Virus record (IMG/VR): IMGVR_UViG_3300009152_000002
Source: an uncultured virus (IMG/VR IMGVR_UViG_3300009152_000002)
Lineage: Duplodnaviria; Heunggongvirae; Uroviricota; Caudoviricetes
Length of the DNA stretch: 23,317 nucleotides
Strand: one strand, 5' to 3'
Shown: in pieces, positions 5,512 to 22,257 of the stretch
Position numbering within the stretch: position 1 is the stretch's first letter
Layout of the letters: each line of letters opens with the position of its first letter
Translations under genes and position numbers: made by a program
Notes under the pieces: model-generated
What the model was told of the DNA's origin: nothing
Database searches by the model: none
The model's input: the letters and a program-made list of their open reading frames with translations, nothing else

Positions 5512-5769
5512 CTAGGCTACGTAACCAGTTGCCTTCTGGGTTTGTTGCTGCTTTTCGATGTCTTCATCAGTGCGGACATCAACTGGTTGGCTGGCCCAAC
5601 CCTTAGCCAAATTAAGATTTCTATTCTGTTCTTCCGCTGACATATTCTGAGATGCACCAGCCTGAGCCTGGGCATATTGACCAGCCATCCTGGTTTTTAA
5701 TTCTGGACTGACTGGGGCGGCATCCATGATTTTTCCGACCCTTGTGCCGGGTCCAAATTGTTGTCCCAT
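5512..5769 (-). CDS. Small Gln/Ala-rich hypothetical protein (RMAG motif)
   Basis: 85 aa; tiles tightly with neighbours. Confidence 0.65.
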   Translation of the reverse strand: MGQQFGPGTRVGKIMDAAPVSPELKTRMAGQYAQAQAGASQNMSAEEQNRNLNLAKGWASQPVDVRTDEDIEKQQQTQKATGYVA

Positions 5770-5774
5770 GATCG

Positions 5775-6098
5775 TTACTGAGGAATGTTGGGGGTGCGTA
5801 ACTCTGCAGAACCCATCATAGATTCTGTAGGCACTGCAGGAAAACCGGTGCCACGAGTTATCTGCATATTAAGAGCTTGTCCTGCCATTCGTGGCCTACC
5901 AGGTGTCTTTCTGCTTTTTGCAAAGTTTCCTCCAGAGGGCGCGTAACCTTCATTGGGTGGTGCGTTACGTGCAACACCTAGAGTGTAACCGTCCGTTTGT
6001 AACGTTTTAACTGCAGGACGATCTCCCCTGGAAGGAACGTGATCTTCTGTGTGCCTTGGAAGATTGACGCGTTGATTGAAACTTCCGAGCGTTCTCAC
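5775..6098 (-). CDS. Hypothetical protein, probably disordered (RMAG motif)
   Basis: 107 aa; GTG start overlaps the upstream TAG (TAGTG coupling). Confidence 0.65.
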   Translation of the reverse strand: MRTLGSFNQRVNLPRHTEDHVPSRGDRPAVKTLQTDGYTLGVARNAPPNEGYAPSGGNFAKSRKTPGRPRMAGQALNMQITRGTGFPAVPTESMMGSAELRTPNIPQ

Positions 6099-6394
6099 TA
6101 CCTGTACACCCCGTTTAAGTTATTTTGCTGAGAGTTTCTTGCCAGATCAACAGGAGGAAGCGGATCCGCATGAGAACGGCTAACCTCCTTCATGTAAGCA
6201 GGATTGTTCAACTGAAACTGCGGTTTCTCAATCCCGTTATAGGCTACAACGTAAGGACAGTGCATAGTTTGCACATTGCGTTTCATGTTGAACGGGTCAC
6301 TAAATCCGGAAGTTGTTATGCTGCCATCACCATATAAGTTTCCGTAGGTGACCGGAAAGCTTGGTTCGTAGCCAGGGGCTTGAGCAAACCTCAT
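6098..6394 (-). CDS. Hypothetical protein
   Basis: 98 aa; ATGA overlap with the upstream gene and TAGTG overlap with the downstream gene. Confidence 0.65.
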   Translation of the reverse strand: MRFAQAPGYEPSFPVTYGNLYGDGSITTSGFSDPFNMKRNVQTMHCPYVVAYNGIEKPQFQLNNPAYMKEVSRSHADPLPPVDLARNSQQNNLNGVYR

Positions 6395-7017
6395 GTCATT
6401 AAAGTGCCACTGGAATTAAAAGCTGACGCCAGCATCGACAACGGATTAAAGAGGGGCTTGTCTTGCGATCCAGAATCACTCATCAATTTTGACGCGTAGT
6501 CATTTAAAAAATCAGTAGTATCTGGATTTTTTTTACTACCTTGCAAATAAAAATTGTAAGTACTTCCCGTAACACCTGGAGTTTGTTGCTGTTGAGCAAT
6601 CTGTTGTCCCCCAGGCATAACGTCAGTCAACTTACCACTTGCGTCTTTTGTACGACCCGTGAAGGCCCACTCCAGTTGCTGTGGCGTTAAGTTGGCATTT
6701 TCCGCCAGGGCTGCGTGTACGTGTGTTGCATGACCCGGATCACCTGGACCAAGCACTTCAGTTAACTGACCAAGCTTCCCAAGACGGTACTTAAGTTCAC
6801 CGGTTCTCTGTTGCCAAGAAATTGGTTTGCCGCCCGCATAGGCAGGAGCTACGTCAACATTTGTCGGAGCAGTAATGTCAACTGCTTTACCTGAATAGTG
6901 GTAAGAACCTGGAGCGTGACCGCCTACACGACCAGTTCCAAAAGCAGGGTTCTCTCCTACAACCCAACCATACTGTTGTGCTGCTTTTCCAAAATCAGTA
7001 ATGTTGACGCCTGCCAC
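6391..7017 (-). CDS. Putative Zn peptidoglycan peptidase (peptidase M15/LAS-type) with shared C-terminal module
   Basis: SYHYSGKAVD (H-x6-D) and HATHVH (HxH) Zn-ligand pattern of the LAS/M15 fold; TAGTG-coupled to the upstream gene. Confidence 0.7.
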   Translation of the reverse strand: MAGVNITDFGKAAQQYGWVVGENPAFGTGRVGGHAPGSYHYSGKAVDITAPTNVDVAPAYAGGKPISWQQRTGELKYRLGKLGQLTEVLGPGDPGHATHVHAALAENANLTPQQLEWAFTGRTKDASGKLTDVMPGGQQIAQQQQTPGVTGSTYNFYLQGSKKNPDTTDFLNDYASKLMSDSGSQDKPLFNPLSMLASAFNSSGTLMT

Positions 7018-7598
7018 TAGATCTCTCCGTAGTTACCGCCGCTATTGAAAGCCGCAGTCAACAATGAAATCGGATTAAACATAGATTCGGGCTTTGCTGG
7101 TTGCCCTGTTACTTTGGGAAGATAAGACGTTAAGAAATCTTTAGTGTCTTGATTGTCGCCACTCAAGTAGAAGTTGTATGTATTGGCTCCAGGATTTTGC
7201 TGTGAGGTTTGCGTAGTAGGAGGGTTGTTAGGTAGTCCTGCAGCAGTTTTTTGAATTTCGGGTAAAAACTGTTTGTAGGTTCCTGACTTAAATGTTGTCC
7301 ATGCGCCAAAGCCTGAAGAATCTTTTACTTGTTTAGCAGCACGAAGATTTGTTTGTGGATCAAGGAGCTGTTCGTTGCTCTTCAACCCAAACTGTTTACG
7401 ACGGGCGGGGCCGAGGGTGTCGATCATGTTGATCTGAGACAGCCCATAAGAGTTGTCGCCAGTAGCCCTATTTGTGTTGTGTGCGTACTGGTTGCCACTG
7501 GACTCAGCCTTGATGATGGCAGCCATTGTTTGCGCATCATTACCACTAAAGCCTGCACCTTGTGCAAGTTGTAGGAGTTGAGCAGAAGTCAGTGGCAT
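7017..7598 (-). CDS. Lytic transglycosylase (SLT/lysozyme-like) with shared C-terminal module
   Basis: AIIKAESSGN (catalytic Glu), SYGLSQIN, DPQTNLRAA, AWTTF motifs. Start moved to ATG 7598 (MPLTSAQLL), removing the overlap with 7609-8088. Confidence 0.85.
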   Translation of the reverse strand: MPLTSAQLLQLAQGAGFSGNDAQTMAAIIKAESSGNQYAHNTNRATGDNSYGLSQINMIDTLGPARRKQFGLKSNEQLLDPQTNLRAAKQVKDSSGFGAWTTFKSGTYKQFLPEIQKTAAGLPNNPPTTQTSQQNPGANTYNFYLSGDNQDTKDFLTSYLPKVTGQPAKPESMFNPISLLTAAFNSGGNYGEI

Positions 7599-7608
7599 GG
7601 GTCTAGGC

Positions 7609-8088
7609 TTAGCGGAAGCTGTTTTCGAACATAAGACGAGTGCCAACAGCAACGTCAGCTGGACCGGGAAGGGCTTGAATGAACTCAGCACCTTCCCGAT
7701 TAAATCGGTACCGCGCTTGTTCAGGATTTCTGTAATTAGGAACATAGAGATGGGAAGCTAATCGATCCGTCTCGTATATATAGATTTGCGTCCAGGTTTT
7801 GAGGGTTTCTTTAAAGTCCGAAGTTGAAATCGTACGCGAAACATCACCAGCAATGTTTTCAAGACGATTCTTCGGTGTTATGAAATTATTTACACTACCC
7901 GTCATATCGGTGCGCTTTTCAGCTTCGTCGCACCGAGAAACCTGTTCGGAAATCTTGCTATACCAGAACGAATCTGGAACATTATTCACAGCCTCCTCCA
8001 ATCGAGCTTGGTCGCCAGCAGGGACAGATGTGTTGTTGTATCCCAGGTGCCAGCGGACTTTCGACTGGAGGAAAGTGTCAAGTTGCAT
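7609..8088 (-). CDS. Hypothetical virion protein, possibly head-completion/adaptor
   Basis: 159 aa, helical-looking, downstream of the capsid genes. The CDS is solid; the function is inferred from position only. Confidence 0.45.
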   Translation of the reverse strand: MQLDTFLQSKVRWHLGYNNTSVPAGDQARLEEAVNNVPDSFWYSKISEQVSRCDEAEKRTDMTGSVNNFITPKNRLENIAGDVSRTISTSDFKETLKTWTQIYIYETDRLASHLYVPNYRNPEQARYRFNREGAEFIQALPGPADVAVGTRLMFENSFR

Positions 8089-8137
8089 TACTTAACAACA
8101 GTGAATAATTGACGTACACAATATGTAGCGTACTCAA

Positions 8138-8578
8138 TCATTCTACACGGATAAGATTCTCAGTGATGATCTCATCCCAATCAACGCGTTTGATTGTTTT
8201 AAGTTGATCAAGGCGTGCAAACTTTTCGCCAGACATTGAAGTTTGTAAATCTTTAATGTCGCGTGCAGTCTTCAAGCCGACACCAGGGAGAGTGTCTGCA
8301 ATCTGCCGAGCACTGGCGGTGTTGATGTTGAGCCTGGTATCAAGAGGAAAAGTTTCTTTATTAGTTGGTTTTGCTGGGTTAACGCCCTCTTGTTTCAACT
8401 GTCCTGTCAAGCGTTCTTCCACTTGCAGTTTTTCAGTTGTAGCGTCCAGCTGGGGGACAAGATCGTCCTCCTCAACATAAAGGACTTCGTCTTGTGAGTC
8501 CACACACATGAAGATTCCTTCTCCGTGCATGGTGACGACTTCGAGGAGTGCTCCTGTTGGCTTGTACCGGTACAGCAT
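8138..8578 (-). CDS. Helix-hairpin-helix (ComEA-like) DNA-binding protein
   Basis: C-terminal RLNINTASARQIADTLPGVGLKTARDI...F..LDQL..IK is the ComEA/HHH_3 pattern. Start moved to ATG 8578 (MLYRYKPTG); the longer ORF crosses a terminator and overlaps 8688-9554. Confidence 0.8.
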   Translation of the reverse strand: MLYRYKPTGALLEVVTMHGEGIFMCVDSQDEVLYVEEDDLVPQLDATTEKLQVEERLTGQLKQEGVNPAKPTNKETFPLDTRLNINTASARQIADTLPGVGLKTARDIKDLQTSMSGEKFARLDQLKTIKRVDWDEIITENLIRVE

Positions 8579-8635
8579 TCGTAAAAGATAGTGACTACCA
8601 GTACAATACCAAGGTTTACCCAAAAGCGCTAGGTC

Positions 8636-8665
8636 AATAAAAAAGCGGGCCACTGGGACCCGCTT
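8636..8665 (-). terminator. Rho-independent terminator after the capsid/decoration genes
   Basis: Minus strand AAGCGGGT-cccagtg-GCCCGCTT followed by TTTT, ~22 nt after the 8688 stop. Confidence 0.8.
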
Positions 8666-8687
8666 AATTACTGATTCCAGAAATGGA

Positions 8688-9554
8688 TCAGGTGTCGTCG
8701 CCGCCCACTTGGGAAGCAAAGTCAATGAAGCCTTGGATATCATTCCAAGACACAGCAGCAGCTGCCTTGACGTAGTTAATACGGGCAAGAATGTAGGCTT
8801 TCTTACCAGCAGCAATATCAGCATCAGAGATATACACGCCGCCGCCAGAAGCGGTGGTAGCAGTGATCGCAGTAACAGTGGTAGCACGGAACGTGGTAGC
8901 CGCAGTAACTTTGTACACCATTGAGTTATCAAAGCCGGTGAGCTTGGCTGCACTGGTGTCAGTGGTAGCAGCAACAACGGAGCTAACGAAAGGAACAAAA
9001 CCGCCGGTAGTACCGCCGCCAGTGGTGGCGCCAGAACCTTGAGCAACTGTGTTGCTAGAAGCTGTCAGCCAGGAGCTAGCAGCTGCGATACCGTTGAGCT
9101 GAGGCGTGGCGGTAACACCAACGGGAAGACCGCTGGAGGTGGGGCCAAACATCAGAATATCTGAAGCGTTAGTGAACTTCAGATCAGCGGTCACAGGGTC
9201 GGCGGGGAAGCCGGGGGCTGGATCAGCCGTGGTACCAGCGGGAAGGTCCTTAGCAACAGCGATAGAAGCGCCGTAAACGTAAGAAGGAGATGCACTGGAG
9301 CCAGGAACAACCAGGGTCGTGATGTTGTCACGAACGCGGTCGTCGGTACGGCGATCAGGAGAAGGGATGATCAGATCCAAGCTCTTGTAGCTAGCAGCGG
9401 CGCCACTTGCATTGCTGATCGGCACATAGGCGATCAGTTCGTAAGCAGCGAAACCAGGCCAGCCAAACACACCTTCAGAGTTGAAGGAGGAAAGGCGATT
9501 GATCTGAGCACCAGGCTGGAGAATCTGGCCAGCACCAGTTTTATAAGTTGCCAT
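8688..9554 (-). CDS. Probable capsid decoration/minor capsid protein
   Basis: 288 aa, Ala/Thr/Ser/Gly-rich, directly after the MCP, GAGGT RBS, same GC-rich codon style as the MCP, followed by a terminator. Confidence 0.55.
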   Translation of the reverse strand: MATYKTGAGQILQPGAQINRLSSFNSEGVFGWPGFAAYELIAYVPISNASGAAASYKSLDLIIPSPDRRTDDRVRDNITTLVVPGSSASPSYVYGASIAVAKDLPAGTTADPAPGFPADPVTADLKFTNASDILMFGPTSSGLPVGVTATPQLNGIAAASSWLTASSNTVAQGSGATTGGGTTGGFVPFVSSVVAATTDTSAAKLTGFDNSMVYKVTAATTFRATTVTAITATTASGGGVYISDADIAAGKKAYILARINYVKAAAAVSWNDIQGFIDFASQVGGDDT

Positions 9555-9565
9555 TGTTAGTTACC

Positions 9566-10708
9566 TCAGGGAGCGATGGTGAAAGCAGAGGTAATGAAGT
9601 CCTTGTTCAGGTTGGCGAAGCCAGCGTACAGTTGCCAAATCAGGATGATAAAGCGGCTGAAGTCATCGTTGTTGTTGATGAGAACCTGAGCATTAGGACC
9701 GCCAATACCGACGCCCACTGCTTGAGGACCGAAGAACAGACCAGGAGGAGTGTTGTAGGTCAAAGAACCATCACCACCGCCAAGATCAACAGTTGCAGTC
9801 TTGTTAGCAAAGTTAGTGGACTCGAAGAAGCGAACGCCTTCAAACACGAAACCTGTAGGCATCACGGGCTCACCAGCAACGAACATGGCTTGGCCGTACT
9901 GACCACCACCGTAGATTGCTTGGTTAGGACCGCCAGCACCCATCAGAGGGTTGCCTTGGCCCATGCCGGGATAACGCGCAACTTCGCGGAAGCCCTGGTC
10001 AGCACGGAGGTCGCGCATGAACGTGGGGTCAGCGATACAACGGTAGTAACCGTCTTGGAACACGGGAACGTTGCGCTTGCGCAGCTGACGAACCACTTCC
10101 AGAAGGTCGGTTTTAACGTTGAACTTATAACGCTCCGAAGCATATTCGGTGGCGGTGTAAGTAGAAACGGTGCCGGAGGTGCGGGAGTGACCGTTGGGGT
10201 AGTAGTAACCACCTTGGGTATCGCCAGACTGACCACGGGTTTCCGATTTGGCCATTTCGTCCAGGAACACCCGGTCACGCCAGCGACGATAGTCGTCAAG
10301 CAGGGTCAGCGAACCGATGGACTGGTGGAACATGTTAAGGTTCCCGGTGTCCAGCAGCAGGCGCTGAGCTGTCATCAGAGTCTCACGAGCGATCTTGAAG
10401 GTGCTCGGAGCGTTGGCGTTGTTCGGGTCAGCAGGGCCGGTGTACTCACGCAGAGACACCAGAACCTTGTCCTTGACAATAGCCCGGCTGCTTGCGGTAC
10501 CGATGGTTTGATCCTGGGTACGCTCGCGGCTGGTCTTGGTACCAGGGTTGCCCCAGAAACGGTACCGGTCAAGTTGCACGGTCTGGCCGGGCTGCTTTGT
10601 AAAGTCGTGAACGACCACAGGTTCTGCGGCCATTTCCACGATGTAAGCCGGGTGGGGGCGATAAAGCTCCGCACCTAACAGCTTAGGAAAATCATTATCA
10701 ATAAACAT
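9566..10708 (-). CDS. Major capsid protein (HK97 fold, resembles N4-gp56-type MCPs)
   Basis: 380 aa. QPGQTVQLDRY (GxTVxF-like E-loop region), YYRCIADPTFMRDLRAD (YxxxxHP-like), GFVFEGVRFFESTN, LFFGPQAVGVG, IWQLYAGFANLN. Position downstream of terminase-portal-scaffold. Confidence 0.85.
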   Translation of the reverse strand: MFIDNDFPKLLGAELYRPHPAYIVEMAAEPVVVHDFTKQPGQTVQLDRYRFWGNPGTKTSRERTQDQTIGTASSRAIVKDKVLVSLREYTGPADPNNANAPSTFKIARETLMTAQRLLLDTGNLNMFHQSIGSLTLLDDYRRWRDRVFLDEMAKSETRGQSGDTQGGYYYPNGHSRTSGTVSTYTATEYASERYKFNVKTDLLEVVRQLRKRNVPVFQDGYYRCIADPTFMRDLRADQGFREVARYPGMGQGNPLMGAGGPNQAIYGGGQYGQAMFVAGEPVMPTGFVFEGVRFFESTNFANKTATVDLGGGDGSLTYNTPPGLFFGPQAVGVGIGGPNAQVLINNNDDFSRFIILIWQLYAGFANLNKDFITSAFTIAP

Positions 10709-10802: not shown

Positions 10803-10823
10803 ACAACTTACTTATAGCCGTTA

Positions 10824-11096: not shown

Positions 11097-11098
11097 GA

Positions 11099-11566
11099 TC
11101 AACCCCGTGCACGTTGTTGTGCTGCTTTTGCGCCCATTTGTTGAGCGGCTGCAACAGCGTTACCAATTGGAAGTTGCCCGGTAAAAGGCATCATCCCGGT
11201 CATCATGCGCTGATCCATCGTGAGCATGCTGTCTTGCGTAATCTGAGCAGCTTTGGTGTTGTGCGGGGCCATCAGGCCGTACATGGGAAGAGGAGAACCT
11301 TGCTGGTTCAGCATCAGATACCCGTCAGACAGGTTAGCAGGCATCGGTACGGCTTGGTTGTGTGGGGAACCAATCACAGCTGTTGATCCAGCTCCACGTT
11401 GCCTGGCGTATTGGTCGCTATTTCCTGCAACCAGTTGTTCTTGGATATTGCCAGCTCCATAAGTAACAAGGTTGGGTGCCGTCATCGCACCCACGGGGCC
11501 ACCAGCAGTACCAATCTGCGAAAGAAACTGGGAAGCTCGATCACCGACGCTAGCTTTTCCTGCCAT
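11099..11566 (-). CDS. Gln/Met/Gly-rich hypothetical protein, possible internal virion protein
   Basis: 155 aa, ATG start, TAGAAT upstream (11610-11615). Confidence 0.65.
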   Translation of the reverse strand: MAGKASVGDRASQFLSQIGTAGGPVGAMTAPNLVTYGAGNIQEQLVAGNSDQYARQRGAGSTAVIGSPHNQAVPMPANLSDGYLMLNQQGSPLPMYGLMAPHNTKAAQITQDSMLTMDQRMMTGMMPFTGQLPIGNAVAAAQQMGAKAAQQRARG

Positions 11567-11626
11567 ATTTATAACCTTAATTTAAAAAGGAGCTGTACTC
11601 TTGTTTACTATTCTAAACTTAGTTGA

Positions 11627-12031
11627 TCAATAAACAATTGGCATCTGAACGCCAAGTTGAGCACCCAAATCACGGCCAGCCATACGTTCACCTCTTTTTT
11701 TATTCCCACGTGCAATGGCTGTTGCAGCTGCACCAAGCCCTAAGGCTCCTGCTCCTAGAACACCTGCTCCAACGTTCTGTGCAACCTGTGGGTTCAACAT
11801 TTGAACTTGCATATTCTGTGCGACTTGGGGTAGCCCCATGGCCCCCAATAAGCCATGTGTGGGAGGAATAACTTGCCGATGGTAGCCACCAAAAGGATCT
11901 TGCGCCATTTGCGCTTTCCCAGGAACTCCAGCAACGGCTGTTCCTACAGCAGAACCAATTTGTCCAAGTTTGGGTCCAACTTGAGCACCTAACTGGCCAA
12001 GGAACGCAGCAGCTTTATCACGAATAGCCAT
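11627..12031 (-). CDS. Gly/Ala/Gln-rich protein with glycine-zipper-like hydrophobic segment (RMAG motif)
   Basis: 134 aa; VGAGVLGAGALGLGAAATAIA followed by basic RGNKKR; PQVAQN occurs twice. Confidence 0.65.
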   Translation of the reverse strand: MAIRDKAAAFLGQLGAQVGPKLGQIGSAVGTAVAGVPGKAQMAQDPFGGYHRQVIPPTHGLLGAMGLPQVAQNMQVQMLNPQVAQNVGAGVLGAGALGLGAAATAIARGNKKRGERMAGRDLGAQLGVQMPIVY

Positions 12032-12041
12032 ATTAACAAAT

Positions 12042-12075
12042 AAAAAGGGGCAGCCTTTGCTACCTTTTATTTTAC
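12042..12075. repeat. Direct repeat copy A (-10 box plus weakened terminator hairpin)
   Basis: aaaaaggggcagcctttgctaccttttattttac; 31/34 identical to 12832-12865. Confidence 0.9.
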
Positions 12076-12091
12076 AAGCACTTTGTTTAGG

Positions 12092-12829
12092 CTAAACAGC
12101 TTCAGGATCTTCAATAATTTCAGTTTTTTTCAAACGGCTTTTTATTTTTTCTCCGGCCATCCTCAATCCCCTTCCTGCTGCTGTTGCCAAAAGACCCGTT
12201 GCGGCTGGCGCAAGAAGATATGGTACGGCTTGACTGACAGCAAGTTTCCAGTTGCCAGGGGTGCCAGCAGCGCTTAAATACTTCATCCCCCTTCTCGTTG
12301 CTTCTATTTCCGAAGCAATTAGCGGAGCTTGTGCCAAATAAGATAATCCAACAGTATTGGCTAATGCTCCAATATTGCTTTTTTTGCTTGCCGCTAACCC
12401 AATTAAGGCAGGAAGGGCCAAAGGAGAGCTTGCTAGATCTGGTGCATTTTCTTGAATGCTGCTGAAAATTCCTGGCTGCTTGTGAATTGCCCTATGCCCC
12501 AATTCATGTGCCAGAGTAAATAGATGTGCGTTGGGACCATAACTTACATAACCAGAGCCGCCCGGCTCCATGGTGTAAGATCCTAGGTTATTTGGATCAT
12601 TTGATCTGTAAACTGTTGGTTTTTTTAATCCTGAAATATTTTGATGCGCTTGTATTACTTTGTTTTTTAATTCTTGCGAAGAGGGATCCGATAAAGTTAA
12701 GTAATTAGCGTGCTTTGCTTCTTGTTCAAAAGTTCTCCAAACAGCTGTAGGTACTGCTTTTTTGTTAATTAAATGTCCGGCACCTGCTGCTGCTAATGCA
12801 AACAAACTTTGTTTTACAGCATCATTCAC
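12092..12829 (-). CDS. Putative Zn metallopeptidase (HEXXH), possibly membrane-associated
   Basis: LAHELGH, hydrophobic segments, then SEIEATRRG (third-ligand Glu), the arrangement seen in neutral zinc peptidase (Zn_peptidase_2-like) proteins. GTG start; visibly more AT-rich than flanking genes. Confidence 0.65.
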   Translation of the reverse strand: MNDAVKQSLFALAAAGAGHLINKKAVPTAVWRTFEQEAKHANYLTLSDPSSQELKNKVIQAHQNISGLKKPTVYRSNDPNNLGSYTMEPGGSGYVSYGPNAHLFTLAHELGHRAIHKQPGIFSSIQENAPDLASSPLALPALIGLAASKKSNIGALANTVGLSYLAQAPLIASEIEATRRGMKYLSAAGTPGNWKLAVSQAVPYLLAPAATGLLATAAGRGLRMAGEKIKSRLKKTEIIEDPEAV

Positions 12830-12831
12830 AA

Positions 12832-12865
12832 AAAAAGGGGCAGCCTTTGCTACCCCTTATTCTAC
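12832..12865 (-). terminator. Direct repeat copy B: intrinsic terminator after the scaffold gene, abutting a TAGAAT -10 box
   Basis: Minus strand gTAGAAT-AAGGGGTAGC-aaag-GCTGCCCCTT-TTTTT, directly followed by the GTG at 12829. Confidence 0.75.
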
Positions 12866-12911: not shown

Positions 12912-13928
12912 TCACTCCATCACCAAGAGCTTCTGACGGAACACTTCGGGGTTAGACGAAGCTTGGTTCAGATAGCGCCAAGCGTTTGCAGGATCGCGCT
13001 CTGCCAGGGAGCCGAAGCTATTCCAGAAGTCGCCAGGGTTGCCCTGTGCTTGAGGCTGCGGAGGAGCAGGCATCTCAGGACGCTGAGGAGCCACAGGAGG
13101 AGCACCAGCTGGACGTACAAACTGTTGGCCAACTTGCTGACCGTAGACAGGAGCGTCATCGGGAACGGGGTAGGGACCGTTTTCGCCGAAGAACTCGCAG
13201 GTGTAGTCGGCCAGAACATCAGGATCAGTCAGGATGGTCTCATAAGCGCGATGCTCTTGAGACATTTCCTGAAGCAGGTTCACTGCATGGACCAACTGCT
13301 CATTGGTCTGGATGAGAGCATCCTCAATGTTGCAAGCGTAGTTGTTGAGAACAGCCGGAGCATCAGCACCGAAGTAATCAATAACCTGTAGGCTGGCGTC
13401 ACTTACTCCGTTTGCGCGGAGTTGATCCGCCGTTATTTCCTGAGAAGTTTGGGAATAGTTGTTGGAGTAAGCCTGGTTGCTGTTGATCCCAGGCGAATAG
13501 GTCTGCGTCCCCTGGTTGCTGTACTGAGTTGGTGCTACCTGGGAACTGTAGTTGGCGGGAACGGTCTGCTGAGTCCCGTTCGATTGTTGACCCTGGAAGG
13601 GGAATTGGACGGGCGAACTCAGGAGCCCTACCAGGCTGTTGAACGCCGACTTGTAGGGGTTGTCCCCCTGGGGCGCTTGTGGGGCTGCCTGGTACGCTTG
13701 GGGGTACGACGCTGTAGGGTTGAACTGGGGTTGTTGGACCCCCATCTGGGCCTGCATTTGCGGGGCTGGGGCCACCGCTGTTTGGTAGGGCGCCACCCAC
13801 TGCGAAGTTGTTGCCACCGAAGGTGCCTGAGCCGCCGTCTGCTGCATTACTGGAGCCGCGTAGCTGATCGGCTGGGTCTGGGATACTTGGGGTGCCGACT
13901 GGGTCGGCATTACGGTATCGGCCTGCAT
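12912..13928 (-). CDS. Putative capsid scaffolding protein (Gln/Pro-rich N-half, helical C-half)
   Basis: 338 aa, follows the portal; GAGGT RBS at 13934-13938 inside the portal CDS; helical acidic segment IEDALIQTNEQLVHAVNLLQEMSQE. Function from position and composition. Confidence 0.6.
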   Translation of the reverse strand: MQADTVMPTQSAPQVSQTQPISYAAPVMQQTAAQAPSVATTSQWVAPYQTAVAPAPQMQAQMGVQQPQFNPTASYPQAYQAAPQAPQGDNPYKSAFNSLVGLLSSPVQFPFQGQQSNGTQQTVPANYSSQVAPTQYSNQGTQTYSPGINSNQAYSNNYSQTSQEITADQLRANGVSDASLQVIDYFGADAPAVLNNYACNIEDALIQTNEQLVHAVNLLQEMSQEHRAYETILTDPDVLADYTCEFFGENGPYPVPDDAPVYGQQVGQQFVRPAGAPPVAPQRPEMPAPPQPQAQGNPGDFWNSFGSLAERDPANAWRYLNQASSNPEVFRQKLLVME

Positions 13929-15660
13929 AGGTTACCTCTTTTTGTAGGCTTTCGAGAGTTCGGTAAAGGAAGGGGGTGAGATCAAGTCTCGGATCCGCAG
14001 CCATCGGAAGATTAGGTTGCTGCGGATGGGGGGTCCTCATTTCTTGATTTACGAGATCAATAAATGTGGCCATTGCCCTCTGTACTTCTCCCACCATCCG
14101 GAACGGGAATCCGCCGAGCATGCCAGCGACTTCGTCGTCCGTTTTTGAAGGGAATAAATACTTCAGTGCTTCTATGCTATCAACACCTAACTCCTGTAGG
14201 TTTCGAGTAAAGATCGATTGGTTAAGTTTGTCCTGTGTTGTGTCTTCATAAACAGGTCCCATCCAGCGCCAGCAAACCGTTCTATCCCCATCAGGAGCTA
14301 ATCCAAGAACACCGGGGGGGATCTCTTTTGTTTCAACTGCAGTATCAATTGCTTTCTGAAGTTTCTTTTCATATACTGCTTTTTGTTTTTCGTATTTAGC
14401 TTGTAAAGCTTCGTCACTAAGATCGGCAGGAGGATCAGGAAATTTAATTCCGGAAGCGTAAGCGAGCGACTTACGGAAAATCTGCTCCTCCTGGAAAACC
14501 ATTAACTCAAGGCACTTACAAACACCATAGGTATAAAGTTGTAAGCACTTTTTCTTGGCCGTTGCACTTACCCGTCCATAAGCTGATTTAATCTCCGTAG
14601 CGGTTACATTGGTAATACTAAGATCGTCGATGCCGCCTAAAGCAAGCCGGATCTCACTACGAAGCTGTTCGGCATACCGTGCCTGGTCAGAACTGATCGC
14701 ATTAGGTGTAATAAAACCAACACGATCTGATGGCTCCAGGTTGGCAATAACCCGTGGAACACGCATGCCACTACCTGGTTTACCGTAATAACCAGGATGC
14801 TGACGAGTTACGTTATCAGATTTATATGTAGAGCTGGAAAGACTGAACTCTGATTGGAAGCCAGACTGACTGGAAATACTAGGGCGTTGGGAAACATCAC
14901 CATCTGTTTTCTCAATAATGTCTTGCTTCGGCCTAGAAGACAGAAGAGTTGGGTTACCAAAGAACGAAAGGTTTGCCCTGATGTTTTTAACCATCTCATC
15001 ATGAGCGATGATTTGGTTAGACAACCATTCAAACTCACCATGCCCGTCAGTACCAAAAGCATCGGGATTATTAAAAACTTCAACACACGGAATAAACTCC
15101 ATGGTGTTGACAGTTGTGGTGGTATTTCCTAACGTGGCGTACTCAATTTCAGTGTCAAATGATAATTCTTGTTCGCTGTGACATTCTTGAATTTCAGTGG
15201 CGGTAATCCGCAACCGCATGTAGCGCTTGTCAGTTGAAAGGCCGATGCCGCCAAACCCACGGCTAGATTTGACCTTGTATGGATAAATAATGATAACTTC
15301 TTCCAGATCACCCTCTGGCGTGTAGTAGGTTCGGTACGCGTCTTTGTCGAACCAGTACAGGCGGTACGTTTTCTTGGTGGGACGAATATAGAAAAGACCT
15401 TTGCCGTATGCCAAAAACCGATCCCACATGGAATCAAGCCGGGCGTCTAGCTTGTTAAATTTGATGACTTGTTGAATAAAGTCAAACCGTTGAGTGCCAA
15501 AGTTGTCCTGATGCGGATAGAACTCGACGCCCTGACGGATGCCGAACATCTTCATCTGAGAAAGATGAGCGTTCAACAGCATGGTATCGGCGCCACCGTC
15601 CGAATCCCTGTTGACGATTGACCGGATGAAATCCTCTAGGACTGTTTTGTTTTCGGACAT
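13399..15660 (-). CDS. Portal protein with long Gly/Pro/Ser-rich C-terminal tail
   Basis: 753 aa after terminase. Portal-like segments: FLAYGKGLFYI, MEFIPCVEVFNNP..GxxEFE, NLSFFGNP, TATEIK. The last ~176 codons overlap the scaffold gene. Confidence 0.8.
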   Translation of the reverse strand: MSENKTVLEDFIRSIVNRDSDGGADTMLLNAHLSQMKMFGIRQGVEFYPHQDNFGTQRFDFIQQVIKFNKLDARLDSMWDRFLAYGKGLFYIRPTKKTYRLYWFDKDAYRTYYTPEGDLEEVIIIYPYKVKSSRGFGGIGLSTDKRYMRLRITATEIQECHSEQELSFDTEIEYATLGNTTTTVNTMEFIPCVEVFNNPDAFGTDGHGEFEWLSNQIIAHDEMVKNIRANLSFFGNPTLLSSRPKQDIIEKTDGDVSQRPSISSQSGFQSEFSLSSSTYKSDNVTRQHPGYYGKPGSGMRVPRVIANLEPSDRVGFITPNAISSDQARYAEQLRSEIRLALGGIDDLSITNVTATEIKSAYGRVSATAKKKCLQLYTYGVCKCLELMVFQEEQIFRKSLAYASGIKFPDPPADLSDEALQAKYEKQKAVYEKKLQKAIDTAVETKEIPPGVLGLAPDGDRTVCWRWMGPVYEDTTQDKLNQSIFTRNLQELGVDSIEALKYLFPSKTDDEVAGMLGGFPFRMVGEVQRAMATFIDLVNQEMRTPHPQQPNLPMAADPRLDLTPFLYRTLESLQKEVTYAGRYRNADPVGTPSIPDPADQLRGSSNAADGGSGTFGGNNFAVGGALPNSGGPSPANAGPDGGPTTPVQPYSVVPPSVPGSPTSAPGGQPLQVGVQQPGRAPEFARPIPLPGSTIERDSADRSRQLQFPGSTNSVQQPGDADLFAWDQQQPGLLQQLFPNFSGNNGGSTPRKRSK

Positions 15661-15907: not shown

Positions 15908-17431
15908 CTAATATTCCAACTCAAGCTTACCCCTGGTCATTAACCCGTTGCAGAGCCAAATTAAGGCGTCGACGCAGTCGTCGTGAGAGCTTACGCCAAA
16001 GTTAATGATTTCATCAGTCAGGGCCTGAAACTTTCGATATTTGTTAAACACGAGTTTTCGCTGTTCAAACAGGCCCATAATCCCCCTGAAGCGTGCAACC
16101 TTGTCCCCACGGAACCCTTTGACCGCATGCCAGTTGATATTGTAAAGTCCATGGTCACCAAGGCAGATCCGTTTGAAGTCCGCTTCTAGGGAAGCTTGAT
16201 AGGCGACCGCTTCAGACCAGACATCAATACTACTGGCACCAGCGTGGTACTGGTTTCCGTCTTTGTGAACGATTCCCCACTCGTAACACATCTCCATTAA
16301 AGACTCTAATTTCTCCAGGTTTCCCATGATCCGGATGCGTTTGCAATCAATGATGTGGATCTTGTCTCCAACACGTCCACCAAGGACCATAACTGTGTAA
16401 TCGTTACGTTCCCTGACGCCAGCAGAAAGGTCAACACCAATTCCTAAACAATCAAATTCAGTGGAAATTTGACCTTTGACAATCAAATCTGGTGAGATCG
16501 ATAGCTCACTGGTTTGAACAATTTGGTTTTGATACTGAAAACTGAAACTGATAGGAGCTTGACGACGGCGATCTTGGAGATATTCCAAAGACCACATGTC
16601 AGGCCAGTAAGAAATTTCATCTCCGATAGTGTCAACAGTGATTGCGGATTGAACGATTTGAACCCAGTCATTTACAGGTGTAAAGGTAGTGCTGTGAATG
16701 TCGTCGTGACGAAACCTAGTACCAAGACAGATGGCCCTACCGCCTTCAAACATAGTAGGAACAATAACTGAGTTCCAGTTATCTTCCATCATTTGTCGGA
16801 TGTCACGGTTTTTAATATCGTCAGCACTCTTTACAACGTCATCCAAAATACAAAGGTGTGAACGTTTGGAGGTCACTGCACCTTTAAGACCTGCACAGCA
16901 GATGGTAAATTCTTCTTCACCAGTGGATTTAATTCCTGCAAACTTCCAGTCAATACTCCAATATTCATTGGAGTTGATACCTTTGGCAATCTTCACCATT
17001 GGGAAGATTTCTCTATAAATTTTACTTTCTTCAATAATTCGTTTGATTGCAGCGCTCTTGGGCCGCGCAACATCAACCGTGTAAGAAATATAAAGAATTT
17101 TTAGCGGTTTTTTATGGAGTGCGTGTACTCCAATTGACCAAGCTGTGTATAAACCAAGTACTGTTGATTTTGCTGATCCTCGTGGCGCCAGGATGTCGAT
17201 ATTGGGGCCGCCAATGCCAACTAAACATTCAGTGTTGTCACCGGTACAAAGGTACCGATGCCACTCTTTATGGTGAGCAGCAGGAGGCTTATCTCCAACA
17301 ACATCGCAAAAATAAGCGAAGTCAGTACGAGCCCTTTCAATGTCAATGTTGGAAGTTTTTTTAACAACCTGTTGCTTTGCTGCAGCACGAGCGGTTCTGC
17401 GGTAAACGGAATAAAGACTGGTCCCTGCCAT
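15908..17431 (-). CDS. terL: Terminase large subunit
   Basis: Walker A APRGSAKST, Walker B LCILDD, coupling region LGTRF, nuclease motifs GIGVDLS, NDYTV and HDDCVDAL. Confidence 0.95.
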   Translation of the reverse strand: MAGTSLYSVYRRTARAAAKQQVVKKTSNIDIERARTDFAYFCDVVGDKPPAAHHKEWHRYLCTGDNTECLVGIGGPNIDILAPRGSAKSTVLGLYTAWSIGVHALHKKPLKILYISYTVDVARPKSAAIKRIIEESKIYREIFPMVKIAKGINSNEYWSIDWKFAGIKSTGEEEFTICCAGLKGAVTSKRSHLCILDDVVKSADDIKNRDIRQMMEDNWNSVIVPTMFEGGRAICLGTRFRHDDIHSTTFTPVNDWVQIVQSAITVDTIGDEISYWPDMWSLEYLQDRRRQAPISFSFQYQNQIVQTSELSISPDLIVKGQISTEFDCLGIGVDLSAGVRERNDYTVMVLGGRVGDKIHIIDCKRIRIMGNLEKLESLMEMCYEWGIVHKDGNQYHAGASSIDVWSEAVAYQASLEADFKRICLGDHGLYNINWHAVKGFRGDKVARFRGIMGLFEQRKLVFNKYRKFQALTDEIINFGVSSHDDCVDALIWLCNGLMTRGKLELEY

Positions 17432-17455
17432 GCGCTTACCTTAGCGCACTACACT

Positions 17456-17941
17456 TCAAGACTCTTCTTGCAGGATCTTCGTCCACACAGCCATAGAAGC
17501 TTCTTCAAGCGGACCTTCGATAGGGTCATCACGAAAGATCAACAGCACCTCCCTGAGAGCACGGTCGGCTCCGGCAAGGATCAATCCTTGTTTGTCGGTT
17601 AGGTGCTTTTCATCATTTAATTGTTTAATGGTGCCGCGAAGCTCTTTTTGTAGCATGGCAATACGTGAGGCTCCCATATCTTGTTTGATCATGCCAAGAT
17701 CAATTGCATCACGGAGTTTGGAAATATCTTGCTGCATGGAGTCAATCTCCATTTCCATAATTCCGTTGAAGTTCCTTTTCTTGAACTCTTCTTTAGACCA
17801 CTCATCACACTCCACGATGGATCCTACGTTTCCCAGGAACCGGGAATACAAGTACATCTGAATTGGAGAAGAAGTTTTCTTACAGAAAGCAAGAAAGGAT
17901 TCTCGGTCTTTTTCAGTTAAAGACTGAATCCAGCTCCGCAT
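17456..17941 (-). CDS. Probable terminase small subunit
   Basis: 161 aa, helical/coiled-coil, directly upstream of terL. Confidence 0.5.
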   Translation of the reverse strand: MRSWIQSLTEKDRESFLAFCKKTSSPIQMYLYSRFLGNVGSIVECDEWSKEEFKKRNFNGIMEMEIDSMQQDISKLRDAIDLGMIKQDMGASRIAMLQKELRGTIKQLNDEKHLTDKQGLILAGADRALREVLLIFRDDPIEGPLEEASMAVWTKILQEES

Positions 17942-17945
17942 TGAG

Positions 17946-17978
17946 AAAAAGCGTCAGGTATTTATTGTAACGCTTTTT
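17946..17978 (-). promoter_or_regulatory. Hairpin (AAAAAGCGT...ACGCTTTTT) enclosing a TACAAT -10 box
   Basis: 9-bp inverted repeat ending in a T-run after the 17977 stop; TACAAT at 17964-17969, 22 nt upstream of the ATG at 17941. Confidence 0.55.
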
Positions 17979-18468
17979 ATTCAACAAGTCCTGGTTGTGC
18001 TGAACTGGGCTGTGAGGCGCTAGGGCCACCCATACGGTACGCGTCTTGCGCCCAATCATGCTGCCGACCTGCAACGTAATTCTGCTGCATGTTCTGTTGC
18101 AGATTTGTCTTACGGGTTTCTTTACCTTGCGTTTGGTATCCGAGACGCTGTTGCTCGCCCTGGGTTACAGTTGTCTTGCGGGTTTCTTCCCCAGTGGCGC
18201 CGACAGTGGCACGTTCTTGTTCGCCTTGGGTAGCAAGGGTTGCACGGGTTTCGCCACCAGTGGCTTGAGTTTGGCGGATGTCTTGGGTCGTGAAGAACTC
18301 TTTGTTCTGCTGATCCAATTGAGCGCCAAGTGTCATGTTAAGGCGCGACTGAGCACCGGAGACTTCGTTCAACGCCGTTTGAGTTTGCAATGACTGCGTT
18401 GGCACTGCAACGGGAGCCGGTGCTGCGGGCGGCGGTGGAGCGGGTGCAGGTGAACGTTTCGTACCCAT
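17977..18468 (-). CDS. Hypothetical protein with 11-residue repeats (candidate pilot/ejection protein)
   Basis: 163 aa, Pro-rich N-terminus, five hendecad repeats; TGnTATACT 23 nt upstream. Confidence 0.7.
   Translation of the reverse strand: MGTKRSPAPAPPPPAAPAPVAVPTQSLQTQTALNEVSGAQSRLNMTLGAQLDQQNKEFFTTQDIRQTQATGGETRATLATQGEQERATVGATGEETRKTTVTQGEQQRLGYQTQGKETRKTNLQQNMQQNYVAGRQHDWAQDAYRMGGPSASQPSSAQPGLVE
18100..18264 (-). repeat. Five tandem 11-aa (33-nt) coding repeats
   Basis: ATGGETRATLA / TQGEQERATVG / ATGEETRKTTV / TQGEQQRLGYQ / TQGKETRKTNL; invariant G and R. Confidence 0.85.
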
Positions 18469-18512
18469 GACAGTTTCGGTTCTTAATTAACAGTATAACA
18501 AAAAGATTTAAA

Positions 18513-19052
18513 TTAGGCAGTGCGGAACGTTGTCCCAGCGTAGCCACGAGCAAACTCTTTTGCTGCTAGTGCCTGTGCGGCTGTTGCCCGGTCACGTTCT
18601 GCTTCGGCGCCAGCAGCAGAGGTCATTTGGCTTTGAGCAACTGCATTGCGTGCGGCTTGGGCCGTAGGTGTCTGTTCTTTAGTAAGAAGAAACTGTGTAC
18701 TGGCCGCAAGGTTGCGGGCAGTTGCTTCAGCTGATGCGGCACTCAGATACGGAAACAAATCCGACATCTGTTGGCGAGTTGCTTCGGCACCAAACTTGGC
18801 TTGTGCTTGAGCTTGTTGCAAATAAAGGGGTTGTAACTGTTTTTCAAGTTCAACCTGTGCTTTTATTTTGTCAGCATAATCAGAGGGAAGCGCAGAAACA
18901 GGGGGCAGAGTATATGCAGGTGCCTGGGTTCCGCTAGCATCTGACCCATAACCAGTAGCAGGTTTAAATTTACTGGCATTCAACCAATCTTTTGCAGTCC
19001 CAAAAGAACTAGACCCTGCAGGGTTGAAATAAGGGAAAGAGGAACCAGTCAT
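18513..19052 (-). CDS. Ala/Gln-rich helical protein, candidate internal virion protein
   Basis: 179 aa; TGATG coupling to the upstream gene. Confidence 0.65.
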   Translation of the reverse strand: MTGSSFPYFNPAGSSSFGTAKDWLNASKFKPATGYGSDASGTQAPAYTLPPVSALPSDYADKIKAQVELEKQLQPLYLQQAQAQAKFGAEATRQQMSDLFPYLSAASAEATARNLAASTQFLLTKEQTPTAQAARNAVAQSQMTSAAGAEAERDRATAAQALAAKEFARGYAGTTFRTA

Positions 19053-19831
19053 CAGCTGTACTGATATTGTGCTGCCAATGCGCTGCCCATTTGTGAAGCT
19101 GCGTTAACTCCCATTTGCTGAGAAGCACGGAGACTGCTACGGATCGCATCAGCTTGGGTATCAATATTAGAGCGAATCTGAGCTGCTGCCAGGTTGCGCT
19201 GCATTTCGTCTTTCTTTGCTTGAGACAGTACTGGGTACTGGAGGTTGATCAGTTTTTGCATATTCCTGATCTCAGTGTCCATATCTTTTTCAGATGCCAG
19301 GCGACCAGCGGCAAACGCTTTGTTAGGATCCATGACATCTAAAGATCCCAACTGACGATTAATACCCTGGAGATCGGAAGGAACTGCGGGAACTGGAGTA
19401 AAAGGTCCGGGCTGTGCTGCGCCCAAGCCTGGAACTCCCATTGCACCGCCAGCCCCAAGGGCTGCTTGAGCTGCTCTTCCGGGACCACCGGCTAATCCAG
19501 CGGCAAACCCAGGAATCGCCATTCCAGCAAGGCCAGCAGCTCCGGTGCCTGCAAATTTAGCAAGTTGACCAGCTGTAACGGCTTGTGCCGGTCCAACAAG
19601 TCCTAGGGCTTGGCGTCCGGCTGTAGCTGCTTTTGTTAAGCCGCCTGCTAGAGGGGCAAGCAGCCCTGTACCTTCCAAAACCGTGCCTGCCATGCGACCG
19701 GCACCTGGTACCAAGGCACCCAAGCCGCCGGCAAGTGCAGCCCCGCTAAGGGTCTTGCCCAAATCACCTCCGCTTTGCTGATAAGCTTGGAGACCTCCAA
19801 GAGCAGCGCTACCTAATACCCAGGGCCACAT
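19052..19831 (-). CDS. Gly/Ala-rich protein with hydrophobic N-terminus and C-terminal coiled coil, candidate ejection/pilot protein (RMAG motif)
   Basis: 259 aa; GAGG RBS and TAAAAT 22 nt upstream. Confidence 0.65.
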   Translation of the reverse strand: MWPWVLGSAALGGLQAYQQSGGDLGKTLSGAALAGGLGALVPGAGRMAGTVLEGTGLLAPLAGGLTKAATAGRQALGLVGPAQAVTAGQLAKFAGTGAAGLAGMAIPGFAAGLAGGPGRAAQAALGAGGAMGVPGLGAAQPGPFTPVPAVPSDLQGINRQLGSLDVMDPNKAFAAGRLASEKDMDTEIRNMQKLINLQYPVLSQAKKDEMQRNLAAAQIRSNIDTQADAIRSSLRASQQMGVNAASQMGSALAAQYQYS

Positions 19832-19882
19832 AATTTAAATCCTCTTAGTAGTTATTTTAGTAGAGATAAGCTTTTGTTTTAA

Positions 19883-20431
19883 TTAACCAAATGCTCCGCC
19901 AGCAGCACTACCAAGAGCAGGACCAAGCGCCATACTTGCACCACCAGTTACAGGAGCGAGAGCAATACCAGCCACGGTTCCTAGGATGCCTCCAATAGAA
20001 CTACCTAAGCCGCTCTTTTTCCCTTCAATTACAGTCGGCGATTGTGGGTAAACAATTGTCAAATCACCACTTTGAGAAACACCGCCACCACCACCGCCAG
20101 CAAAGCCACCACCTTGTCCATACCTATTTTGTGCATAAGAACTTAGTTTATCGCCAGCAAAACGAGCAACGTCTCCCCAAGGGGATTGTTTTTTATTCTG
20201 ATTTAAAGTTTTATTGAATCCGTAAGGATCATCACCTTGTGGAATTTTTGACCAATCAGTTGAGGTTGAATTGCTACCTGGAGTGGGGTCTGATCCAGAG
20301 TCCCAATACTTAGACGTATCATTGCCAAAATTAAAATTCCCACCGCTACCGGAAAAACCAGAGCCAAAAGAACTACCGCCGCCGCCGGAAGATCCTGAAG
20401 AGTTAAGCCAACTACTTGTATCAAATCCCAT
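19883..20431 (-). CDS. Gly/Ser-rich protein with C-terminal glycine-zipper hairpin (RFAG motif)
   Basis: 182 aa; ends GLGSSIGGILGTVAGIALAPVTGGASMALGPALGSAAGGAFG. Confidence 0.65.
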   Translation of the reverse strand: MGFDTSSWLNSSGSSGGGGSSFGSGFSGSGGNFNFGNDTSKYWDSGSDPTPGSNSTSTDWSKIPQGDDPYGFNKTLNQNKKQSPWGDVARFAGDKLSSYAQNRYGQGGGFAGGGGGGVSQSGDLTIVYPQSPTVIEGKKSGLGSSIGGILGTVAGIALAPVTGGASMALGPALGSAAGGAFG

Positions 20432-20434
20432 GAT

Positions 20435-21688
20435 TTATTTAATATGAGGAACAAGTTGTTGCCAGCTTTGCGCTTGAGGTTGGCCTAAAGCTGTGCTGGC
20501 TTGCTCCAGGGAGCCATGTTTGTGCCTTAAGTATTCTACAGGGTTTTCTTTTTTAATTCGACGTTCTGCAGATTTTTGAAAGAGTTTTTTTGCAGCATGA
20601 CCAACAGCTGCAGCAGTAACCGCACCAGCAGCCAAAATTGCAGGTTCAGTATATCCACCCAGTTTTTCTGCAATCTGTACCCCTAATCCTTGTTGACCAC
20701 TTATCTTTACGTTAGCAAACCCAGGGTATTGTTTTTGTTCTAAATTGTAATTTCCTTGCACATCTGTTCTTGCCGGTTCAATTTTTAATTTTGGTTCAGC
20801 AGCGTACGTTAACGCTTTAATTGCACCAAGACCAGCAGCTGTTCCCAAAGCAGCACTAGCGGTAATGGGAACACCTTTTAAACGAATCTCAGGATCATTA
20901 AGGCCACGTGCGGTACCGCGAATAACGCCACCAAAAGCAGAAAAAGATTGAGATTCTGGATCAATAATAATGTTTTTTCCGGCTTCCGGTTTTAACGCTT
21001 GATAACGACGGTACTGAACAAACTCAGATGGCGCCACGTCAGGACGTTCTTGTTTGAATTCTTGATAAGGCAGAAGTTGGCTCTTCTGGCCAAGCCCATA
21101 ACGCATAGCTGCTTCCAACGCTGCAGATCTTGTTTTGCGACCGGAGGGGTCTTCTTCTTTGGAAACAGGCGCAACAGCCTTATATCCTTTGGGGCGTAAT
21201 CCTTCGGTGATAGGGCCAATTTGACCGCTCATCGCCCCCAATGCAATCGGAACAGCCGCAGCAACTGCAGCACCAGCAAGCGTCGACTCTAGCCCCAACC
21301 TGGGGCCTACATGTTGGCCTACATCACTCATAAGGCGATGCATGTTTGTGTACTTCCAAATATCTCTACGCGTTGCATTTGTTAATACATCGGCAGGGAC
21401 ACCAGCAACTACAGGTGTTGCGGAGGGAACATTAAATTCTTGTTTATTACCAACGGAAGAATAACTCCCACTGGGGTATACACCTTGTGTTTTTTTAACC
21501 GTTGCTGCTGCTTTTACATTTTTTAGCTGCTCCCCAACCAACTCCGACGTAGTCCCTTGAGTACTCTGATAGTAGCCCCAAGGTCTCCGTTCAATGCTGC
21601 CTTGTAATTTAGAAACAGCCTGCCCAACAAACTGTTGAGCTTTCGTTAAACTGTTTGTTAAGTAATTAGGGTTGGTATTCGGATTCAT
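20435..21688 (-). CDS. Hypothetical protein with three Ala/Gly hydrophobic segments, candidate internal virion protein
   Basis: 417 aa; tiles within 2-3 nt of both neighbours. Confidence 0.7.
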   Translation of the reverse strand: MNPNTNPNYLTNSLTKAQQFVGQAVSKLQGSIERRPWGYYQSTQGTTSELVGEQLKNVKAAATVKKTQGVYPSGSYSSVGNKQEFNVPSATPVVAGVPADVLTNATRRDIWKYTNMHRLMSDVGQHVGPRLGLESTLAGAAVAAAVPIALGAMSGQIGPITEGLRPKGYKAVAPVSKEEDPSGRKTRSAALEAAMRYGLGQKSQLLPYQEFKQERPDVAPSEFVQYRRYQALKPEAGKNIIIDPESQSFSAFGGVIRGTARGLNDPEIRLKGVPITASAALGTAAGLGAIKALTYAAEPKLKIEPARTDVQGNYNLEQKQYPGFANVKISGQQGLGVQIAEKLGGYTEPAILAAGAVTAAAVGHAAKKLFQKSAERRIKKENPVEYLRHKHGSLEQASTALGQPQAQSWQQLVPHIK

Positions 21689-21690
21689 CC

Positions 21691-22257
21691 TTAGTACCGA
21701 ACATTAGGATTTAAAAGATTACGTACGGTTTCTAGTTCTGCGCTAGGATTTTTGTGAACAATCGTTGTCACTGGGCTGTGATAGTTTTTAGCTAAAGCAA
21801 GGTTAATTTCGTTGGTATAACGTTGCTGCTCCTGTGCGGCATGAAACTGCTGAAGCTGTTGTAAATCCTGTCCATAAACCTGTGGCGAATCATTGGTTTC
21901 AGGATCGATAGCTTGTGCTGGGGCCATAGCACGTAAAAGTGAATGCGACCCGACTGCCCCAGTAATTTGGCCCACAGTCTGCGCTGCCGCACCAGGCACT
22001 CCCATGGCAGTCAAACCGCCACTTACTGGTGCAGCAATAGCAGAATGAAGTCCAGTATTTGCAAGTGTTCTTAGCGGACCAACGGCAGGGGTTTGCCCCA
22101 GCAAACGGGGAACTCCTTGAGAAACTGCTGTGCCTAAAGCGGTCTCTGTTGCAATCTGTTTACCCAGTTGCGCTGCAGTCTGCGGGCTACTCAAGTACGC
22201 ACCAAGTTTCTTGCCAGCTAGCCGAATTCCTTGTCCGGCGTTCCCTAAAATACTCAT
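21691..22257 (-). CDS. Ala/Gly/Gln-rich hypothetical protein (RLAG motif)
   Basis: 188 aa; ATGA overlap with the upstream gene. Confidence 0.65.
   Translation of the reverse strand: MSILGNAGQGIRLAGKKLGAYLSSPQTAAQLGKQIATETALGTAVSQGVPRLLGQTPAVGPLRTLANTGLHSAIAAPVSGGLTAMGVPGAAAQTVGQITGAVGSHSLLRAMAPAQAIDPETNDSPQVYGQDLQQLQQFHAAQEQQRYTNEINLALAKNYHSPVTTIVHKNPSAELETVRNLLNPNVRY

Follow-up and report, generated by a model that had tools for sequence, protein, structure and literature searches.

The window analysed in this study covers the final 23,317 bases of an 85,317-bp contig of an uncultured virus (IMG/VR IMGVR_UViG_3300009152_000002), an S-EIV1-like cyanophage from a lake, and the feature of interest is a four-residue peptide, R-[MLF]-A-G, carried by seven of its open reading frames (ORFs). 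TerL, portal, capsid and tail genes were recognised on the minus strand by PHROGs, and the capsid protein is 71% identical to that of Synechococcus phage S-EIV1, its sole match among 50,697 phage records. S-EIV1 itself is said to have a short tail and, on empty heads, a long spike. ORF 12912-13928 has no Pfam or PHROGs family match but is putatively the scaffolding protein, judged from its position and architecture, and it is conserved in both clades examined. The ORFs that carry the peptide, referred to here as tagged, occupy three places: the stretch upstream of terS, the interval from scaffold to capsid, and the region that follows the adaptor and lytic genes. Tagged families cluster around the terminase, portal and capsid genes.

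All seven sites listed by a first-pass annotation of the window lie where it placed them (Table 1), in frame on the minus strand and one per ORF. Their codons vary as it had claimed (Arg being AGG, CGA, CGT, AGG, CGC, CGT and CGG across the seven), and strict R[MLF]AG is indeed absent from the coding sequences of the major capsid protein (MCP), portal and TerL of the window. RMAG occurs in 5 of 32 curated window proteins (7,617 residues) against 0.09 expected from 15-residue block shuffles, a number that none of 2000 shuffles reached, which agrees with the earlier rough estimate of well below one; R[MLF]AG occurs in 7 of the 32 against 0.48 expected, again 0/2000, so the motif is enriched over shuffled proteins of the same composition. 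Since RMAG (G=16.6) also exceeds the best 4-mer of every one of 1000 whole-protein shuffles (maximum 14.7), the enrichment survives correction for a motif chosen by eye. A six-frame scan found no exact RMAG elsewhere on the contig, the rest of which holds three R[MLF]AG in called genes (0.73 expected). One of these three begins a Gly/Ala/Gln-rich orphan outside the head module (MRFAG, contig 14539-14901), which was found in one other contig.

Table 1. Motif sites, degenerate motif positions and head genes in the window, with motif look-alikes in the portal gene (window coordinates; strict, R[MLFIVY]AG in relatives).
Feature	Position	Strand	Remark
RMAG, residue 27 of 85-aa polar ORF 5512-5769	5680..5691	-	kept in 3/3 homologues, too close to inform
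RMAG, residue 70 of 107-aa basic low-complexity ORF 5775-6098	5880..5891	-	strongest case
RMAG, residue 116 of 134, Gly/Ala-rich ORF 11627-12031	11675..11686	-	near C-terminus
RMAG, residue 223 of 245-aa HEXXH ORF 12092-12829	12152..12163	-	1/6 homologues
RMAG, residue 46 of Gly-zipper ORF 19052-19831	19685..19696	-	47/70 members strict; candidate ejection protein
RFAG, residue 90 of Gly/Ser-rich ORF 19883-20431	20153..20164	-	22/39 members strict
RLAG, residue 12 of ORF 21691-22257	22213..22224	-	16/17 members strict
Degenerate RLMS, residue 118 of ORF 20435-21688	21326..21337	-	orthologues RMAG 8/17, RLMS 4/17, RLMG 2/17
Degenerate C-terminal GYAG, residue 170 of ORF 18513-19052	18534..18545	-	orthologues RFAG/RYAG; 14/51 strict
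Degenerate RGAG, residue 57 of ORF 11099-11566	11387..11398	-	aligns with relatives' RMAG; 15/77 strict
Putative scaffolding protein, 338 aa	12912..13928	-	start overlaps portal tail; candidate receptor, untagged
Major capsid protein	9566..10708	-	phrog_1357, E=1.8e-17; candidate receptor, untagged
Portal	13399..15660	-	phrog_20475 and phrog_64; strict motif 0/118
Portal look-alike RMVG	14089-14100	-	some of the S-EIV1 clade have RMVN instead
Portal look-alike YAGRY	13915-13929	-	directly over scaffold start codon

Relatives were drawn from 80 terL loci, 80 capsid loci and 80 S-EIV1-type terS loci, each the best 80 of about 600, and counts for the window families, capsid, portal and TerS come from the terL and capsid sets. 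The strict motif, written R[MLFIVY]AG in relatives, occurs in 37/43, 16/17, 9/13, 47/70 and 22/39 members of five window families, and among all windows of those alignments R-x-A-G ranks 1/104, 1/131, 2/185, 2/179 and 6/256 in conservation, first in the families of ORF 5775-6098 (1/104) and ORF 11627-12031 (1/131), second in that of ORF 19883-20431 (2/179), where Arg is nevertheless retained in 37% only, and sixth in that of ORF 19052-19831 (6/256). In the family of ORF 5775-6098, R70, A72 and G73 are the sole invariant columns besides Met1 (26 sequences, 26% mean column identity), and two close strains, X3 and X5, carry a synonymous GCA>GCG change within the motif. R12, A14 and G15 are likewise invariant in 15 sequences of the ORF 21691-22257 family. 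The second residue is freer, as seen in the family of ORF 11627-12031 (RLAG 5/12, RMAG 4/12, RKAG 2/12), and at two loci (L021 and L024) the motif plus the tail of this protein stands as a 65-aa gene.

When all 4-mers were enumerated over 57 families of the phage's own clade (TerL, TerS, MCP and the repeat-protein family of ORF 17977-18468 set aside), RMAG came first (6.4 vs 0.10 expected), and R-h-A-G reached 11.6 vs 1.09, with G=20.7 against 4.8 for the next unrelated pattern. Profile comparison of 14 window families gave hhalign probabilities of at most 30%, mostly on alignments of the motif itself, in agreement with the earlier description of the carriers as unrelated. Across 44 families with 206 non-redundant sites in all, of which some singletons are probably chance, all six Arg codons and all Ala and Gly codons are used, and in five families the motif columns outrank their flanks, which bears out the view that conservation is at the protein level and does not reflect a DNA repeat. 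(These codon counts, like the copy-number, position and periodicity counts below, exclude TerL and the ORF 17977-18468 family.) On the strength of these comparisons R-[MLFIVY]-A-G is a real and selected short linear motif of the proteins.

An alternative already raised in the first-pass annotation takes the Met for an internal translation start, and the motif could likewise be imagined as a signal in the DNA or as an incidental product of low complexity. Position 2 is most often Met (43%, family-weighted), terL begins MAG in 84/112 and some relatives' genes begin a few codons before the motif, but the codon at position 2 is other than ATG at 104 of the 206 sites, orthologues swap M/L/F/K, and the in-frame Arg codon noted before the terL start is not conserved (Arg at 26/83 loci). 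The variety of codons together with the non-ATG second positions rules out both a DNA signal and an internal start. Low complexity as the source accords poorly with the shuffles of local composition (0/2000) and with the 26-sequence family in which R, A and G alone are invariant besides Met1. We regard this group of explanations as barely credible.

The motif is present in a single copy in 224 of 241 tagged proteins, and its place is free: in the seven window proteins the residue number of the Arg ranges from 12 to 223, families of relatives carry the motif N-terminally, internally or C-terminally, and the extremes in relatives are an Arg at residue 2 and a Gly 4-6 residues before the C-terminus, a freedom that fits a tag better than the cut site of a propeptide. 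Upstream there is no clear preference. Downstream, Q/D/E is preferred, then L/F/I at +7, and the residues show periodicity at 100 degrees (0.275 vs 0.224 +/- 0.013, 0/300) and none at 170 degrees, so that a short amphipathic helix is predicted to follow the motif. At 366 sites the residue after Gly is E in 101, Q in 87, D in 45, T in 36, M in 3, F in 1 and C in none; a lipobox was rejected for want of any Cys there, and a prepilin peptidase site because only one Phe and three Met occur. Cys is also rare in the carriers themselves, 12/13 tagged families being nearly Cys-free vs 19/38 others (p=0.008), and the 1,320 residues of the tagged window proteins contain none.

With scaffold, capsid and portal untagged, no maturation protease detected and helical periodicity in the residues that follow the motif, an uncut docking tag is favoured over a cleavage site. 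We therefore put the probability at roughly 50% that R-[MLFIVY]-A-G with its predicted amphipathic helix is a docking tag, left uncut, that loads accessory proteins into the procapsid, and we rank this reading above a protease site, mutual helix packing and a host partner. The tagged proteins would be internal or ejected virion proteins of a head that assembles in the manner of P22, without a maturation protease. The receptor of the tag would be the scaffolding protein, or else the capsid protein on its inner face; the Arg and hydrophobic residue of the tag may insert into a pocket, with Ala-Gly permitting close packing of the helix. Cargo would be freed when the scaffold exits or the shell expands, after which some of it may build a channel spanning the envelope and some may be delivered into the host. 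Searches of PDB sequences gave no usable template for the capsid, and the capsid profile meets a major capsid protein of solved structure at no better than E=0.0037.

The first-pass annotation had left loading and proteolytic maturation side by side, and the maturation part is weakened by these data. [RK][MLFIVY]AG occurs in 0/126 distinct scaffold ORFs and the strict motif in 0/86 capsid proteins, as well as 0/87 TerS, whereas the T4 prohead protease is described as cutting both scaffold gp22 and capsid gp23 (PMC9026906); in this the motif also differs from the cleavage motifs of T4 gp21 and phiKZ gp175. Scans with Pfam (110 proteins) and PHROGs (29 and 50 proteins) found no prohead protease, although a remote one could escape sequence search, and inspection of two distant relatives showed no protease gene between portal and capsid. 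Where the motif starts at residue 2 or lies six residues short of the end, a cut would free tiny peptides only, and a single asymmetric cut site could presumably not free cargo alike from N- and C-terminal positions.

There are nevertheless points in favour of a protease site, at which a C39-like, HEXXH, unrecognised phage or host enzyme would cut either within the motif or behind its Ala-Gly. The small-small end of the motif is like that of double-glycine-type sites, and an invariant YAGRY stands in the portal where the conserved part joins a low-complexity tail. A C39-like peptidase gene with an intact Cys/His/Asp pattern (contig 55636-56250) was found to be near-core, with homologues in 8 of 9 other genomes (G001-G004, G006-G008 and S-EIV1; Pfam detected 2/5 and BLAST added G008), the exception being the 79%-complete G005. 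However, this protein matches endolysin phrog_10051 (E=3e-48), and in G002, G003 and S-EIV1 a lysozyme-type domain, or another that looks muralytic, is fused to the C39 domain; on this endolysin architecture it was set aside as reader of the motif. The HEXXH protein, with a weak PF04298 match (E=0.057), was rejected as maturation protease because it is an accessory insert found in few loci. Its gene is skipped in close strains (joint 12041-12832) and is flanked by a 39-nt direct repeat (87%; 12037-12075 and 12827-12865) that carries a -10-like box, a hairpin and a T run, and we regard it as a moron-like cassette; a homologue search yielded one relative, without the motif. Cleavage by a host enzyme has a parallel in P22, in which host OpdA is reported to cut gp7 (PMC8402733). 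Taken together, we consider a protease site unlikely.

Another explanation sees in the motif a module for helix packing, through which the carriers bind one another, as an internal core or an ejected channel, with no separate receptor. Ala-Gly followed by helical periodicity would suit it, as would the glycine-zipper segments of several tagged proteins and the family of ORF 17977-18468 (minus strand, upstream of terS), a core family of 11-residue Gly-periodic repeats, often R-x-[AT]-G-[EQ], with 35/95 members strict. The motif also stands, however, on tiny polar orphans and on the accessory MRFAG gene remote from the module, and families differ freely in where they carry it, which makes mutual packing a rather improbable account. 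The number of repeats in the ORF 17977-18468 family varies widely among relatives (136-683 aa), and this ORF and contig 46243-46707 both begin MG-x-x-x-P with a polyproline run.

Ten residues of T4 IPIII are reported to suffice for head targeting, the capsid-targeting sequence (CTS) being an N-terminal ten-residue propeptide that gp21 removes after L/I-X-E (PMC9026906). The cyanophage motif is like the CTS of IPI-III and Alt, as that source describes it, in being a short peptide common to unrelated, poorly conserved proteins and probably a prohead address; it differs in standing at either end or inside, in having no Glu cut site and in the lack of a detectable gp21-like protease. It may work like the T4 CTS or like an encapsulin cargo peptide, yet it departs from the T4 system in N-terminal position and removal by gp21.

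Encapsulin cargo-loading peptides are short, uncut peptides in a flexible region that bind the lumen of an HK97-fold shell. They differ from the present motif in sequence, in being terminal on folded enzymes and in belonging to a cellular compartment without portal or scaffold.

The P22 scaffold is described as required for loading the ejection proteins and as leaving the procapsid on DNA packaging (PMC8402733, PMC12005531), which favours a tag read by the scaffold or the capsid lumen, and loading is said to be poorly understood even for P22 (PMC8402733). The likeness to P22 gp7, gp16, gp20 and scaffold gp8 lies in a cyanophage portal-scaffold-capsid module without detectable protease and in Gly/Ala-rich, Cys-free candidates, one carrier having weak Atlas similarity to gp7/gp14. 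The three P22 ejection proteins, by contrast, each have a binding site of their own and no shared motif in the accounts cited, whereas at least ten cyanophage families per clade share one. Several proteins are likewise held in the head and tail of phiCrAss001 and then ejected (gp45-gp50), although it is a folded domain that attaches gp45 to the portal and no shared short motif was found in the account of that phage (PMC10172136). Carriers gave no Pfam match to gp7/gp14-type ejection families at E<=1, and an Atlas search with the HhH protein added nothing.

Several observations weigh against a docking tag or limit its reach. The near-matches RMGG (17977 ORF) and RMGQ (10824 ORF), noted earlier, were rejected as members, since neither is conserved as the motif; the R-x-A-G window of the former ranks 140/160 in conservation. 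That homologues keep the motif while flanks diverge holds for the five window families above, but over ten tagged families only 189/365 genes are strict and 31 more relaxed, with a different subset in each genome, and the HEXXH copy, kept in one of six homologues only, is a recent gain or chance. Long uncharged runs are not significantly commoner in tagged families (10/13 vs 19/38, p=0.11), and the nearest named Atlas clusters of ORF 19052-19831, T7_gp14 (0.80) and P22_gp7 (0.79), fall below the 0.9 lead threshold. The excess over whole genomes is clade-limited, with 12 motifs vs 2.2 expected in this phage and 8 vs 1.65 in G002, and is missing from G005 (1 vs 1.3), G007 (3 vs 2.2) and G008 (2 vs 2.2). 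In the S-EIV1 clade, where a motif search by expectation maximisation gave noise and exhaustive 4-mer enumeration was used instead, the signal is less strong and has moved to P-h-A-G and h-A-G-[KR]-Y, although scaffold and capsid stay conserved. Folded core proteins of that clade also match strictly within conserved regions (TerL RFAG 17/51, TerS RIAG 15/53), and its MCP has RYAG within the conserved body in 11/27.

Elsewhere the excess is modest (G001, G003, G004 and G006), G003 and G005 have K-h-A-G variants in the same gene block, and the S-EIV1 genome holds 9 motifs vs 2.2, TerL, tail and one wrong-strand ORF being included in that count. In two distant relatives, whose capsid is about 40% identical, the head module is present and there is no clear tag, and scanning with a further distant capsid brought up nothing.

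Drift of the motif between clades in which scaffold and capsid are conserved is what would be expected if the motif followed a host partner, that is, if it docked a host chaperone, protease adaptor or membrane insertion factor late in infection or after injection. One carrier is a candidate membrane-type zinc peptidase, which may point the same way. The carriers cluster in the head-gene module, however, and replication and early genes are without them except for one orphan, and the motif fits neither a lipobox nor a prepilin site, so that a host partner appears quite improbable.

The portal look-alikes deserve separate mention. YAGRY is present in 63/64 distinct loci, where the overlapping scaffold frame varies (MQADT/MQDAT/MPDVI); it resembles the form of the tag in the S-EIV1 clade, but may just close a conserved portal helix. 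The idea that RMVG and YAGRY are the originals mimicked by the tag is post hoc, and RMVG is not constant, so it was not adopted and is a lead only.

Some further patterns were seen in the same genes. The neighbouring minus-strand ORFs 11627-12031 and 11099-11566 have a common N-terminal helix, D[KR]A-x-x-FL-x-Q-[LI]-G (hhalign 10%). ORFs 6391-7017, 7017-7745 and 22254-22724, also on the minus strand, all have D-F-L-x-x-Y, and the first two have in addition a common C-terminal FNP-x-S-x-L-x-x-AFNS, which may amount to a second shared address. TA-N-AAT stands 8-55 nt upstream of 11/26 late-module genes vs 4/43 plus-strand genes, a pattern picked by eye and a lead only; the genes it precedes include the MRFAG orphan. 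In marine-type relatives (L056:3561-3788, L055:636-1448) the family adjacent to ORF 19883-20431 ends in CDERLKVDIAPL, followed by a 75-aa gene, which we take together to resemble a split intramolecular-chaperone (S74-like) domain. Contig 50379-50600 has a weak NblA match (E=0.0007) and is conserved in four relatives.

A fuller version of the docking tag can be put forward more tentatively, and we think it somewhat doubtful as a whole: a position-independent, uncut address of four residues, read by the scaffold, would load a dozen unrelated proteins into a head without protease, a new gene would enter the virion once its product acquired those four residues, a route apparently taken by the HEXXH insert and the MRFAG orphan, and tag and receptor would drift together between clades. 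Literature on S-EIV1, on RMAG in phage capsids and on short linear motifs of procapsids yielded no description of such a motif, the original S-EIV1 paper lying outside its coverage. A minimal motif shared by so many proteins is a direct experimental handle on the loading of internal proteins into the procapsid. If the docking tag holds true, it would provide a very short loading tag for protein containers derived from phages, and many hypothetical genes of a widespread cyanophage lineage would become candidate virion cargo.

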